From Alphaproteobacteria bacterium (GTDB lineage Bacteria > Pseudomonadota > Alphaproteobacteria > UBA828), in assembly GCA_965237415.1 (NCBI GenBank), contig CBDEFM010000001.1, positions 576,001 to 640,000 on the forward strand: DNA of 64,000 nt, written 5' to 3'. A program made the translations under genes and the position numbers. This document shows positions 11,597 through 40,150 of this stretch, in pieces (positions within the stretch are counted from its first letter, which is position 1; each line of letters begins with the position of its first letter). The notes under the pieces are model-generated. The model was not told where the DNA came from. It ran no database searches and saw nothing but the letters and a program-made list of their open reading frames with translations.

Positions 11597-12544
11597 TCAG
11601 GGTTGGCGCGGGGCGCCGTTGCCGGCGGAGCGTGGCGCGGCGGCCCGGGCCTCGCCGAGGATCCACTCCCGGAAGGCCCGCAGCTCCGGGCGCTGCCGCG
11701 AGGCGGCGGTGGTGATCAGGCAGCAGCGTTCCGGCGCCTCTTCCTGGCGGTCGAAGAGCGGCACCAGGATCCGCCGTTCCAGCTCGTGGGCGATCAGCAT
11801 GGGGCGTCCGATGGCGCCGCCGAGCCCGCTCGCGGCAGCCTGGACCAGCATGCTGTAGAGGCGGAAGCCGGAGGCGCGGGAGAGGTCCGGCGTGGGCTGG
11901 CCCTGGCGGGCGAACCAGTACGACCAGTCGGCGTCCCAGCCGAGATCGTAGAGCAGCGGCCAATCGGCGAGGTCGGCGGGGCCACGGGGCCGGCCGCGCG
12001 CGGCGAGCAGCGCCGGGCTGCACACCGGCAGCAGCTGCTCCTCGTAGAGCGTCTCCTCGAGCAGCGTGTCCTCGCGCCGTGTCAGCGGGCGCGGGGCGGA
12101 GGTCTCGCCCGAATAGGCGAGCCAGGCGTCGAAGTCGCGCCGCGCCGGGTCGACGCCGCGGTGGTTGGTCTCGAGTTCGATGGCGATGCCGGGGTGGGCG
12201 GCCTTGAACGAGACGAGCCTCGGCAGCAGCCACTTCTCGGCCACCGCCTCGACCGAGACGATGCGCACCCGCCGGGGGGTGTGGCGCTGGCGCTCGGAGA
12301 CGCCGTGGACTTCGGCCAGGATGCGCTGGACCTCCTTGAGATAGGCCCGGCCGCGGCGGTTGAGGCGCACGCCGCGGCGCCGGCGCTCGAAGAGCTCGGC
12401 GCCGAGATGCCTCTCCAGGGTGCGGATACGGTGGGCGACGGCGGCGGCGGTGACGCCGAGCTCCTTGCCGGCAAGGACGAAACTCTGGTGCCGGGCGGCG
12501 GCCTCGAAGAACCGCAGGCTTTCGAGCGGGGGAAGGTGCAGCAC
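11597..12544 (-). CDS. LysR-family regulator, GcvA-like
   Basis: LPPLESLRFFEAAARHQSFVLAGKELGVT HTH plus substrate-binding domain (KWLLPRL, LLPVCSPAL). Confidence 0.9.
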   Translation of the reverse strand: MLHLPPLESLRFFEAAARHQSFVLAGKELGVTAAAVAHRIRTLERHLGAELFERRRRGVRLNRRGRAYLKEVQRILAEVHGVSERQRHTPRRVRIVSVEAVAEKWLLPRLVSFKAAHPGIAIELETNHRGVDPARRDFDAWLAYSGETSAPRPLTRREDTLLEETLYEEQLLPVCSPALLAARGRPRGPADLADWPLLYDLGWDADWSYWFARQGQPTPDLSRASGFRLYSMLVQAAASGLGGAIGRPMLIAHELERRILVPLFDRQEEAPERCCLITTAASRQRPELRAFREWILGEARAAAPRSAGNGAPRQP

Positions 12545-12650
12545 GGGGAAGGTCCAGACGAAGCCCTTTGGCAAAACTCGATTATGTCATCTCACATCGG
12601 CGCGTCTCAGGCAAGCCGGGCGCCGCGGCGGAGCCGCCGGGACGCCGGCT

Positions 12651-12938
12651 CTAGGGGCCGCGAAAGCGCCTGCGGTCGCCGTGGCGCCCGGTGGTCTCAA
12701 TGATGTCGAGGAGGATGCGCCGGACTTCCTCGCAATAGGCCCGGCCGCGGCGGTTGAGACGCACGCCGCGATGGCGGCGGATGAACAGCGCGGCGCCGAG
12801 ATGGCTCTCGAGCATGCGGATGCGGTGGGCGACGGCCGGCGGGGTGACGCCGAGCTCGTCGGCGGCGAGGACGAAGCTCTGGTGCCGGGCGGCGGCGTCG
12901 AAGAAGCGGAGGCAGTCGAGGGGTGGGAGCGCGTACAT
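12651..12938 (-). CDS. stand-alone LysR HTH protein (95 aa)
   Basis: MYALPPLDCLRFFDAAARHQSF...; ends with TAG right after the linker helix, no effector domain. Confidence 0.75.
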   Translation of the reverse strand: MYALPPLDCLRFFDAAARHQSFVLAADELGVTPPAVAHRIRMLESHLGAALFIRRHRGVRLNRRGRAYCEEVRRILLDIIETTGRHGDRRRFRGP

Positions 12939-13055
12939 GGCGTTGCGGCAGTTTACGCAAATCATATTTGGTCATCGAGATAATTCACCTTGATAACGAT
13001 CAGGTCCGCGCCCCTCGTCGATCGCCGACCGCTGCAGGGTCGGGCGGGGGGTTCG

Positions 13056-13150
13056 GGTGGGCCCCTGGGGTCGGACAGTTTGAGGCGGCCGATTTGACCG
13101 GCTTGCGGGGCTGTTCCTCCTCAAAGCGGTTGGGGCTGAGATAGCCGGGC
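13056..13150 (-). mobile_element. IS3-family 3' end remnant
   Basis: GYLSPNRFEEEQPRKPVKSAA is a typical IS3 transposase C-terminus, followed by an IR-like AACTGTCCGACCCCAGGGGCCCAC. Confidence 0.6.
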
Positions 13151-13510
13151 AAGCGCATCGCGTCGAACCGAGCTTCGCACGCCTGCACGCGTTGGAGTGT
13201 CGCCTCCCAGCTATGCTCGAGCTGGGCAGCGATCAAACGGTTGTCCGGATCGCAGGCAGCATAGCGCCACTCGGCCAGCGAGGCCTCGTAGCGGGCTTGC
13301 TGCAGATCCAGTTCAGCCACGCGCTGGCGTTCGCGCAGCTCTTCCTCGCGCATGTGCTCAGCCTCCATCATGGCTTCGATTGCCATGGGCTCCACGACAC
13401 GAATGATCTCCTCGGCGATGGCGGCGTCCACACGAACACCGCCAAATATCTGGCAGCGCTCAAGCCCGAGCTGGATTCGCTGTTCATTGCAACGATAAAC
13501 CGGACTGCCG
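13151..13510 (-). pseudogene. large serine recombinase family fragment
   Basis: VYRC...C..FGGVRVDAAIAEE zinc-ribbon region and QARYEASLAEWRYAACDPDNRLIAAQLE coiled coil. Confidence 0.75.
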
Positions 13511-37692: not shown

Positions 37693-38093
37693 GGGTACAA
37701 CTCCAGAAGTTCATGAACACGAATGAGGCGTCGCCCAGCACGGCGGCCGCCCGGGGCAGGGCGGCGCGCCGGCGGACGGCGGGAGGCACCGTCCCGCTCG
37801 GGCAGGAGACGCCCCGGACCGTCAAGGGAGCACCCGGTCCGCCGCCGCCCGTGCGATTCGAAGCCGGGGAGGCGTTGGCAGCGACCGCCGTCACGGCGCT
37901 CGGACGCGTCGCAGCCGGATCCGGCACCGTTCGCCGGACAAGGGGCGAGTGGAAAGGAAAGGCGGCTGCCCGGCCTGACCCAAGAAAGGGCGCCCGCCCG
38001 AAGAGCGGTAGCGGGCAAGGACGCGGCCGAATACGGAATACAGATCGGCGCGCTGCACGCCAGCAAAGTCCGAGGCAAACTCTTCGCCTCGCC
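37693..38093 (-). promoter_or_regulatory. conserved upstream leader, copy C (with an internal insertion of roughly 130 bp)
   Basis: CATGGGTACAACTCC.GA.GTTCATGAACACGAATGAGGCG and GGCGCGCTGCACGCC.GCAA.GTCCGAGGCAA blocks shared with 28367-28634. Confidence 0.7.
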
Positions 38094-38808
38094 CGTCATC
38101 GGCTCTCGAATTCGGCCTGTGCCCGTGTCGCGCCTGCCCCCGCGCAAACGCACAACCGTCGGTGCCGCGGCCAGCCATTGCGGGGGACGGCAGCTTGGCC
38201 GCGCGGAGGGCCTCACGGCCCCGGACCCGCCGGGATCGGCGGCGCGGCGCAGCACGCGCCCACGCGCCAGGCCCCCGGCAGCCATCGCCGCACAAAAAAG
38301 CCATTCTCCCGGAGGAGGAGGCGGAAACGGCCGGGAAGGAAGGGGGCGGCAACCCGCGCCGCGCCCACACGCGAGCGGCCGCGATGCGGCGGAACGGCAG
38401 GGCCGGGGAAGAAACGCCGCGCGCGGTCCGCTTCCCCGATTGGACAACAGGCTTCAAACCGCTTCATCGGACAGACAACTCCCAACCACTCCACACAATT
38501 CAACCGCCTCGCCGCTTCCGCTTCGCATCCCGCAGCCCCAGCGCCAGCCAGGGCGGAATCGCTGACAGGACGAATGTTAAACGTCCTATAAGTGATTGCA
38601 AACACAGAGTTATTAGGCTGTTACCACAATTTGTTTTTCTCTTGTGGCCCGCCCGCATTCCGCTCGAACAGCCTCCATGCAGGTCTGCACCGGCGACACG
38701 GCACGTCGGCGGACTTCCGCCGGGGGCGTGTTGAAAAAGATACGTTTGTGCAATAACGAATATTGTCTTTGTCTTTCTCCAACCCCGCGGTTCCTGGCGC
38801 CCCGATAC

Positions 38809-39096
38809 GTGATTCCCCTGCCGCCTCTCGACTGCCTGCGATTCTTCGAGGCTGCCGCCCGGCACCAGAGCTTCGTGCTCGCCGCCGACGAGCTCGGCGT
38901 CACCCCGCCGGCCGTCGCCCACCGCATCCGCATGCTCGAGAGCCATCTCGGCACCGCGCTGTTCATCCGCCGCCATCGCGGCGTGCGTCTCAACCGCCGC
39001 GGCCGGGCCTATTACGAGGAAGTCCGGCGCATCCTCCTCGACATCATTGAGACCACCGGGCGCCACGGCGACCGCAGGCGCTTTCGCGGCCCCTAG
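38809..39096 (+). CDS. stand-alone LysR HTH protein, copy 2
   Basis: GTG start, IPLPPLDCLRFFEAAARHQSF; same stop as copy 1; a few substitutions. Confidence 0.75.
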   Translation: MIPLPPLDCLRFFEAAARHQSFVLAADELGVTPPAVAHRIRMLESHLGTALFIRRHRGVRLNRRGRAYYEEVRRILLDIIETTGRHGDRRRFRGP

Positions 39097-39202
39097 AGCC
39101 GGCGTCCCGGCGGCTCCGCCGCGGCGCCCGGCTTGCCTGAGACGCGCCGATGTGAGATGACATAATCGAGTTTTGCCAAAGGGCTTCGTCTGGACCTTCC
39201 CC

Positions 39203-40150
39203 GTGCTGCACCTTCCCCCGCTCGAAAGCCTGCGGTTCTTCGAGGCCGCCGCCCGGCACCAGAGTTTCGTCCTTGCCGGCAAGGAGCTCGGCGTCACCGC
39301 CGCCGCCGTCGCCCACCGTATCCGCACCCTGGAGAGGCATCTCGGCGCCGAGCTCTTCGAGCGCCGGCGCCGCGGCGTGCGCCTCAACCGCCGCGGCCGG
39401 GCCTATCTCAAGGAGGTCCAGCGCATCCTGGCCGAAGTCCACGGCGTCTCCGAGCGCCAGCGCCACACCCCCCGGCGGGTGCGCATCGTCTCGGTCGAGG
39501 CGGTGGCCGAGAAGTGGCTGCTGCCGAGGCTCGTCTCGTTCAAGGCCGCCCACCCCGGCATCGCCATCGAACTCGAGACCAACCACCGCGGCGTCGACCC
39601 GGCGCGGCGCGACTTCGACGCCTGGCTCGCCTATTCGGGCGAGACCTCCGCCCCGCGCCCGCTGACACGGCGCGAGGACACGCTGCTCGAGGAGACGCTC
39701 TACGAGGAGCAGCTGCTGCCGGTGTGCAGCCCGGCGCTGCTCGCCGCGCGCGGCCGGCCCCGTGGCCCCGCCGACCTCGCCGATTGGCCGCTGCTCTACG
39801 ATCTCGGCTGGGACGCCGACTGGTCGTACTGGTTCGCCCGCCAGGGCCAGCCCACGCCGGACCTCTCCCGCGCCTCCGGCTTCCGCCTCTACAGCATGCT
39901 GGTCCAGGCTGCCGCGAGCGGGCTCGGCGGCGCCATCGGACGCCCCATGCTGATCGCCCACGAGCTGGAACGGCGGATCCTGGTGCCGCTCTTCGACCGC
40001 CAGGAAGAGGCGCCGGAACGCTGCTGCCTGATCACCACCGCCGCCTCGCGGCAGCGCCCGGAGCTGCGGGCCTTCCGGGAGTGGATCCTCGGCGAGGCCC
40101 GGGCCGCCGCGCCACGCTCCGCCGGCAACGGCGCCCCGCGCCAACCCTGA
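39203..40150 (+). CDS. LysR-family regulator, GcvA-like (copy 2)
   Basis: Translation identical to 11597-12544. Confidence 0.9.
   Translation: MLHLPPLESLRFFEAAARHQSFVLAGKELGVTAAAVAHRIRTLERHLGAELFERRRRGVRLNRRGRAYLKEVQRILAEVHGVSERQRHTPRRVRIVSVEAVAEKWLLPRLVSFKAAHPGIAIELETNHRGVDPARRDFDAWLAYSGETSAPRPLTRREDTLLEETLYEEQLLPVCSPALLAARGRPRGPADLADWPLLYDLGWDADWSYWFARQGQPTPDLSRASGFRLYSMLVQAAASGLGGAIGRPMLIAHELERRILVPLFDRQEEAPERCCLITTAASRQRPELRAFREWILGEARAAAPRSAGNGAPRQP

Follow-up and report, generated by a model that had tools for sequence, protein, structure and literature searches.

A duplicated LysR-type regulator module beside two export operons in a rearranged conjugative element of an alphaproteobacterium

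Introduction

When a regulator gene stands twice beside a secretion operon, is it part of a repeated regulatory system, or have its copies come to lie there by rearrangement? The question was raised by a stretch of 64,000 nucleotides (nt) from an Alphaproteobacteria bacterium of the GTDB lineage UBA828 (assembly GCA_965237415.1, contig CBDEFM010000001.1, positions 576,001 to 640,000), referred to below as the window. Two gene pairs, each consisting of a LysR-type regulator and a short LysR paralogue with the helix-turn-helix domain alone (HTH-only), read away from two operons for export, a tripartite pump on the left and a type I secretion system on the right. The initial annotation of this sequence had taken the arrangement for a repeated module, coupling the sensing of a metabolite to the export of surface or host-interaction proteins with exchangeable cargo. 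Gene order and strands were confirmed on both sides, but the repetition was found to be a single duplication. The account considered probable here is that the region is a mosaic in a rearranged conjugative element, in which a mobile module of genes for HTH-only, LysR and a CuyA-like pyridoxal phosphate (PLP) lyase (PALP) was duplicated and rearranged, and not one repeated regulatory system.

The inverted repeat and its setting

The window has a GC content of about 69% and lies on contig C1 of a genome (G000) of 4.75 Mb in two contigs. Genes were chosen by GC content at third codon positions (GC3) and named by Pfam and NCBIfam profile searches. One inverted repeat of 5,253 nt was found, with arms at 7677-12929 (plus strand) and, mirrored, at 38818-44070 (minus strand). 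Identity is complete over 5,056 nt (7677-12732), and all ten mismatches are located in 12733-12929, beyond which similarity ends. Eight of the ten fall on third codon positions of HTH-only, seven being synonymous and one changing Asp to Glu. On its outer side the repeat ends abruptly at 7677, 8 nt 5' of an ADH start codon. The left arm carries an ADH-like gene (7685-8782, plus), a Rieske oxygenase (8858-10177, minus), PALP (10523-11578, plus), LysR (11597-12544, minus) and most of HTH-only. On the right, HTH-only (38806-39096, plus), LysR (39203-40150, plus), PALP (40169-41224, minus), the Rieske oxygenase (41570-42889, plus) and ADH (42965-44062, minus) follow in mirrored order. Enclosed between the arms are 25.9 kb with two unrelated exporter operons and several insertion sequence (IS) elements. 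A 5.25-kb cassette has recently been duplicated in inverted orientation. The two copies are arms of one repeat and are therefore not independent occurrences. A reading of the repeat as a composite transposon was rejected because the arms encode no transposase, only ADH, Rieske, PALP, LysR and HTH-only.

Genes for conjugation surround the repeat (2413-7085 and 44038-46060) and are in pieces. To the left of it lie a gene for TrwB, the coupling protein of a type IV secretion system (2413-3894, minus), and a MobF/TrwC relaxase domain standing alone (6237-7085, plus). On the strand opposite to this domain, a relaxase-helicase (AAA_30) fragment (44038-45474) terminates within the right arm and is overlapped by an integrase open reading frame (ORF; 44507-46060). 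The split relaxase pieces suggest that an inversion or an insertion has disrupted the relaxase gene, and the surroundings of the repeat are a heavily rearranged conjugative element.

The two junctions

The right copy of the module retains a native 5' flank of about 340-350 nt (38467-38805, plus). This conserved flank was found at the right copy only and differs from the LysR promoter region. The stretch 38467-38817 is homologous to the corresponding DNA of clade loci L011, L013, L018, L075 and others, whereas the left flank is not, and the sequence upstream of the left HTH-only gene is non-canonical. Between that gene and the pump operon lies a fragment of a large serine recombinase (89 aa; 13165-13431, minus), 70% identical (E=3e-36) to an ORF of locus L076 that carries Zn_ribbon_recom and Recombinase domains. 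The fragment falls inside what had been taken for an intergenic region of 1.2 kb. In the best-supported account, the left junction is a rearrangement joint and only the right junction is native.

Related leaders had been proposed for both operons and for an intact gene of PPC repeats that lies between them. The upstream DNA is indeed related: 28367-28760, upstream of the PPC gene, matches 37693-37792 (92%), 37923-38093 (86%) and, before the left operon, 13738-13819 (84%). The leaders share no peptide except MPDDYSA, which is the N-terminus of the PPC protein and of a PPC remnant in the right operon only. No other match to this upstream element was found anywhere in the genome beyond the window, and its reading as a genome-wide regulon motif was dropped.

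Spread of the LysR clade

The clade was scanned in one genome per species. Relatives of the LysR with 67-93% protein identity were found at 77 loci in 49 records under eight phylum labels. The record titles name Alpha- and Gammaproteobacteria, Acidobacteriota, Gemmatimonadota, Chloroflexota, Actinomycetota, Latescibacterota, Binatota and Entotheonella, and some of the names are ones that we take to be sponge-associated lineages. The motifs NHRGVDP and WPLLYDLGW, put forward as the signature of the clade, showed little or no variation among 29 aligned copies. Five genomes hold three to eight clade copies or fragments each, 74-89% identical, with ordinary LysR paralogues well apart at 35-60%. 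At the nucleotide level the loci are 74-91% identical to the window, and in nearly all of them the similarity is stopped by the same coding edge. PALP occurs convergently, in the same position, at 20 of the 77 loci and is 70-98% identical across phyla; HTH-only was found at 24.

Copies were found to group largely by phylum in a quick tree, with 12 label changes compared to a minimum of 7 and to 30.4 with shuffled labels. Only very short branches separate the phyla, and several rows fall in the wrong place. Taken together with a median synonymous divergence (dS) of 0.48 for HTH-only, this grouping fits few recent transfers across phyla, followed by expansion within lineages.

When the neighbourhoods of the clade were collected, relatives of the Cys-rich protein, the outer-membrane factor, the fusion protein and the permease of the left operon were found at none of the 77 LysR loci, and PPC together with type I secretion at one (L011). 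A repeated system leading from LysR to export is not supported because of these counts.

Genes of the module

All three LysR genes of the window carry an N-terminal HTH_1 and a C-terminal LysR_substrate domain, above cut-off in all three (ORFs 11597-12574, 39173-40150 and 21819-22751). The third gene, which had been noted as a further paralogue, is intact (21819-22751, minus) and more divergent, being 66% identical to the LysR of the repeat, and lies downstream of the intact PPC gene in the same direction. Another paralogue had been placed near 7350; LysR sequence with the NHRGVDP motif is present there (about 7290-7450, minus, just outside the left arm), but as a remnant of about 60 aa only. 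The best model for these proteins was GcvA (NCBIfam NF008352) with 236.1 bits for the LysR of the repeat and 249.8 bits for the LysR at 21819, both below the cut-off of 288 bits. GcvA is also the closest solved structure (PDB 8y6u, E=5e-43).

HTH-only is a LysR paralogue with HTH_1, the DNA-binding domain, alone and a conserved basic C-terminal tail that is absent from LysR. The left copy (12651-12938, minus) encodes 95 aa from an ATG start (MYALPPL), the right copy 96 aa from a GTG start (MIPLPPL) with the tail HGDRRRFRG. Over the first 20 codons or so the two copies differ, mostly at third codon positions. Cores from 24 locus ORFs and the two window copies were compared, one further ORF being without the anchor motif, and the distance from the PPL motif to the stop was exactly 91 codons in 22 of the 26 printed cores. 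The median ratio of nonsynonymous to synonymous divergence (dN/dS) was 0.29 over 231 pairs. The family forms at least 193 clusters in a large protein collection; 118 of the 120 clusters listed have HTH_1 alone, and a source name is attached to one of the 120. HTH-only is a gene and not debris.

The best NCBIfam model for PALP was CuyA (NF052482) with 348.6 bits, below the cut-off of 450 bits. The scores for D-cysteine desulfhydrase (261 against 429) and TIGR01275 (256.5 against 289.4) were likewise below cut-off. At loci L010, L014, L019, L031 and L032 PALP is represented by short ORFs only (114-277 aa, in two pieces at L010), and the gene may be decaying there while LysR stays intact.

Regulatory DNA of the module

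LysR genes of the clade were found to have a conserved promoter-like region, CTTGCC followed after about 17 nt by CATAAT, and a dyad, TGACA-N11-TGTCA, that covaries between lineages. At the repeat the dyad reads TGACA-N11-TGCCA and lies over the CATAAT -10 element (12569-12589, minus; mirror site 39158-39178), and a related site (22775-22795) stands before the LysR at 21819. These are the three dyad matches of the window, all at LysR promoters; the scan found none in either junction nor in the PPC upstream region.

PALP has a conserved upstream region of its own (10423-10522, plus) with a small covarying dyad and, at -53 (10470), the motif ATGCGAGA, which it has in common with the LysR promoter. 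Six of the 12 PALP upstream regions have the motif at -53 to -56, and it is also present in 17 of 64 LysR promoters, compared to 0.46% of background windows of 100 nt. Since PALP, HTH-only and LysR each have conserved upstream DNA, the module is self-contained, and comparison of the loci shows that the three genes form a horizontally spread module with its own regulatory DNA.

The 5' flank of HTH-only was analyzed further. A scan of the window for the flank motif detected it at the right copy only, with a count not above chance. Folding of the flank as RNA gave no convincing structure: the energy was -9.3 kcal/mol for an alignment of 401 columns, and the covariation term was unfavourable. There was no relevant Rfam match, and no small conserved ORF was seen in the flank by eye. 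The sequence ACTTCG...CACAAAT, which lies at the far end of the flank (38467-38805 and homologous flanks), has an inverted counterpart about 290 nt away in the HTH-only promoter (GTATTTGTGCAAT...CGAAGT), and the two could be a putative pair of operator sites. Directly before the flank, about 400 nt upstream of HTH-only, loci L011, L013, L014, L017, L019 and L080 have a tandem repeat of a heptamer, (CGGCGCT)n, and then TAATTA. The right copy of the window is without the heptamer repeat, which may mark a site of insertion or recombination.

The export operons

The left operon (14176-20318, plus) encodes a Cys-rich secreted protein (14176-15054), an OEP/TolC protein (15095-16618), a membrane-fusion protein with an N-terminal PAS domain (PAS-MFP; 16615-18390) and a MacB ATPase with a MacB_PCD/FtsX permease (18406-20318). 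ATPase, permease, fusion protein and outer-membrane factor, the constituents of a MacB-type tripartite pump, are thus all present. The operon resembles MacAB-TolC pumps in combining these four parts and differs from them in three ways: ATPase and permease are separate genes, the fusion protein carries a PAS domain, and the Cys-rich gene is located upstream, which was seen in this window only. Because two genes encode ATPase and permease, the cut-off for the fused MacB equivalog was not reached. At L099 and L100 the four pump genes are conserved as one unit and at L101 as a split unit, with no LysR of the clade near any of the three. The PAS-MFP architecture is shared by a family of at least 239 proteins.

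A scan of 400 other genomes of the class detected the Cys-rich protein in one, where its gene is not beside the pump. It gave no usable match in the ESM Atlas nor in Pfam at E≤1. The family is rare, small and multi-copy; further members at G000:C2:1525834 and 1539901 and at six places in G317 are 33-40% identical in the N-terminal half.

The right operon (34273-37692, minus) comprises a PPC remnant (37588-37692), a PrtD-type ABC protein (35745-37544; TIGR01842, 594 bits against a cut-off of 510) and an HlyD adaptor (34273-35748; TIGR01843, 299 bits against 209). The two scores identify a type I secretion system, whose outer-membrane partner is not at the locus; three OEP genes are present genome-wide. 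The OEP gene of the left operon, thought to be the only TolC, is so within the window, but two more TolC-family genes lie on contig C2 (G000:C2:18922-20103 and C2:1137704-1138885). These two have identical scores, are about 1.1 Mb apart on opposite strands and suggest another large repeat in the genome.

The PPC remnant has 34 codons, in which MPDDYSA is joined to the last 27 or so residues of a PPC domain. The intact PPC-repeat protein (23786-28366, minus) has 1526 aa with at least ten PPC domains and no N-terminal signal-like segment, and is followed by an ORF of 181 aa (23228-23773). At L011 the right-hand arrangement was found with intact cargo: genes for HlyD, ABC and a PPC/cadherin protein of 1,463 aa are divergent from HTH-only, LysR and PALP. 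LapA-like systems are type I secretion systems for large repeat adhesins. With such systems (PrtD/HlyD) the loci have in common that ABC and HlyD genes lie directly downstream of a gene for a large repeat protein, at L011 one that lacks an N-terminal signal-like segment and in the window the remnant of one. The differences are a predicted cargo with PPC and cadherin domains, of which 34 codons are left in the window, and the lack of an outer-membrane component at the locus.

Known relatives and proposed mode of action

Autorepression is usual in the LysR family, and a dyad over the regulator's own -10 element fits it. In the classical architecture the regulator is divergent from its target and one operator region serves both. 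By domains, best model and closest structure the LysR is akin to the GcvA/DsdC/AmpR branch. It departs from this branch in scoring below the GcvA cut-off, in its multiple copies, in its high identity across eight phylum labels and in a conserved partner that has the DNA-binding domain alone. CuyR, the regulator encoded beside the lyase CuyA, is of the LysR type. Passages of the report on the L-cysteate sulfo-lyase cluster of Ruegeria pomeroyi describe cuyZ, cuyA and cuyR as adjacent (PMC4334477), so that a regulator gene beside a CuyA-type PLP lyase has a precedent; the module differs from it in that PALP is below the CuyA cut-off and no cuyZ-type exporter was seen.

From the known behaviour of LysR-type regulators, the conserved operators and the adjacency of cuyZ, cuyA and cuyR, the following mode of action is proposed. 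The LysR, as a relative of GcvA and DsdC, would sense a small amino-acid-like or sulfonate-like compound, would repress its own promoter by binding the dyad over the -10 element and may control the convergent PALP gene, which has a promoter motif in common with it. HTH-only could modulate this control by competing for the operator or by pairing with LysR. As to the junctions, the comparison shows that the left copy has lost its native flank and become joined, through recombinase debris, to a MacB-type pump operon which occurs nowhere else with this LysR among the loci compared. The right copy, with its native flank, is divergent from the type I secretion operon and its decayed PPC cargo gene in the same arrangement as at L011.

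Several points weigh against this account. LysR and PALP are convergent and not a classical divergent pair, and the effector and regulatory links are ones that we infer. The three dyad matches of the window do not exceed the 3.7 expected by chance and are telling only by their placement. The motif common to PALP and LysR promoters was defined post hoc and is present in half of the PALP regions. PALP stays below the curated cut-offs for CuyA and D-cysteine desulfhydrase. No bridging contig was seen over the inner left junction (12929/12930) among those listed in the sequencing-run check, which covered short Logan contigs of metagenomes only. Finally, genes for surface-repeat proteins are enriched beside the clade and, where upstream, strictly divergent from it, as described in the next section, which suggests targets outside the module; in the present account these are secondary.

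Surface-repeat genes and other explanations

The LysR, with HTH-only, could be a portable cross-phylum regulator whose targets are the genes next to it, exchangeable ones that encode giant repeat proteins of a surface or eukaryotic-like kind, here the PPC genes with type I secretion, while PALP supplies or removes the signal. This explanation is possible but on balance doubtful. First and second neighbours were searched with Pfam at the 68 loci with a called core. Giant repeat proteins (fn3, cadherin, LRR, Calx-beta, CARDB, PPC, Big, SWM, NHL, spondin, sortilin/BNR) were found at 23 of these loci, 15 of them scanned directly and eight via a cluster mate, from 15 of the 49 records. Labelling by BLAST placed surface-repeat ORFs at 27 of the 68 loci. 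They made up 34 of the 191 ORFs within two genes of LysR but 12 of the 303 at a greater distance (odds ratio 5.3, P=6.5e-7), in a control that is biased in that giant genes far from LysR are cut by the ends of the loci and the BLAST reference set was drawn from the neighbours themselves. Counted by protein cluster, the upstream cases, 14 divergent and none co-directional, speak for this explanation, and the downstream cases, four convergent and four co-directional, against it. The right junction agrees with the upstream pattern. Two of the three LysR genes in the window adjoin the PPC gene or its remnant. The PPC upstream region and the right junction, however, are among the places without a LysR dyad.

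The association was also found to be uneven between genomes. In G002 a Calx-beta match is no more than 6 kb away from 7 of the 11 clade copies (coverage 2.9%, P=4.6e-9), including four of the six copies of a class with 55-60% identity, but the corresponding numbers were 1 of 8 in G001, 1 of 11 in G004 and 0 of 5 in G005, none of them significant. Six of the eight copies in G001 are about 2 kb from fn3 matches, among the matches listed and compared by hand, and all six are units of a single tandem array; array copies of this kind, like segmental duplicates, do not count as independent. Moreover, every one of these loci is a variable region rich in IS elements, in which genes of this type collect in any case. 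Mobile-element genes were seen near the clade at 24 loci or more in a count that was not systematic, and TonB-dependent receptors as one cluster at 12 loci. Of the cargo proposed initially, the coupling to export operons fell away, and a weaker form survives in a portable regulator that is enriched near surface-repeat genes of many families.

Some observations on these neighbours are recorded here. The second LysR class, 55-60% identical to the query, is located on G002:C4, where the copies at 804479, 2014305, 2405175 and 2425378 lie 1-2 kb from Calx-beta genes (four of six copies). The array in G001, at about 1.787-1.880 Mb (L047, L051, L053, L055, L056, L059), has at least six units, each a LysR-clade gene with a convergent protein of 2,570-2,595 aa, and these proteins carry fn3, cadherin, SWM-repeat, Big_12 and arylsulfotransferase domains. 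A sulfur theme recurs near the module. Besides the CuyA-like lyase itself it comprises an ATP sulfurylase fused to an APS kinase, a sulfatase and arylsulfotransferase domains in giant neighbours (L012, 5018-7255; L038, 5001-6497; giant proteins of L047 and L048). Among the listings and abstract openings returned by full-text literature searches, no paper was found on a link between surface-repeat genes and this regulator nor on natural LysR paralogues with the DNA-binding domain alone. How such giant surface-protein genes are regulated is, to our knowledge, not known.

An extension of the portable-regulator explanation, regarded as rather unlikely, is that the module serves as a control cassette tying a cue from the lyase substrate to divergent adhesin-like cargo. 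Its near-identical copies would then act as homology anchors for swaps of cargo within and between genomes, and the inverted duplication of the window would be one such event.

An assembly artefact, in which wrong joining of a repeated cassette produced one arm or the orientation of the 25.9-kb segment, is improbable. The perfect identity over 5 kb and the lack of a listed contig over 12929/12930 would fit it, and contigs over 12483-12836 show the letters of the right copy at 12733 and 12794. Against it, the genome is in two contigs, unique sequence of 25.9 kb lies between the arms and the ten differing sites of the inner 200 nt have a pattern typical of real coding divergence. In addition, the outer left junction at 7677 is bridged by contigs of runs X3 and X4.

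The system first proposed, in which each HTH-only/LysR pair directly controls the divergent export operon and both operons use one TolC, agrees with the geometry of both junctions, the related DNA upstream of the left operon, the PPC gene and the right operon, and a type I secretion locus without its own outer-membrane gene, but it is very improbable and largely refuted by the comparative data, namely arms that are one duplication, a left copy without native flank and with a recombinase fragment before the pump, the pump at 0 and type I secretion at 1 of 77 LysR loci, LysR at 0 of 3 other pump loci, junctions free of the dyad and two more TolC-family genes in the genome.

Other features of the window

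The preferred reading, a mosaic in a rearranged element, leaves a number of features to be described in the segment between the arms and beyond. Transposase genes of the IS1380 (28917-30158, plus) and IS1595 (33174-34130, plus) families enclose orf679 (30454-32493, plus). The product of orf679 is lipoprotein-like; it contains an HExxH motif (HEIGHALG), and its end weakly resembles a TbpB C-lobe (E=0.0065). The GC content of this stretch is about 59%. An N-terminal fragment of an IS21 transposase is fused to a third, partial ADH copy (20710-21411, plus), the ADH part being 96% identical to the ADH of the repeat. Two direct repeats of 93 nt with 94% identity (55262-55354 and 57028-57120) lie 1.8 kb apart. 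A first impression of MORN-like repeats in the 181-aa ORF and of a haloperoxidase-like fragment at 20183-20605 was not supported, neither giving a Pfam match at E≤1. When the entire window was compared to Rfam at E≤1, the sole match was a chance one to an internal ribosome entry site.

Implications

The proposed system leading from LysR to secretion largely resolves into duplication and rearrangement, and an attractive false lead is thereby avoided. What remains is unusual for LysR regulators: one clade with 67-93% identity across eight phylum labels, often in several copies, that has its own promoter and operator and travels with a PLP lyase and a paralogue reduced to the DNA-binding domain. 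The clade adjoins giant surface-repeat genes more often than expected, and a common regulator with a predictable operator would make the regulation of these genes testable.

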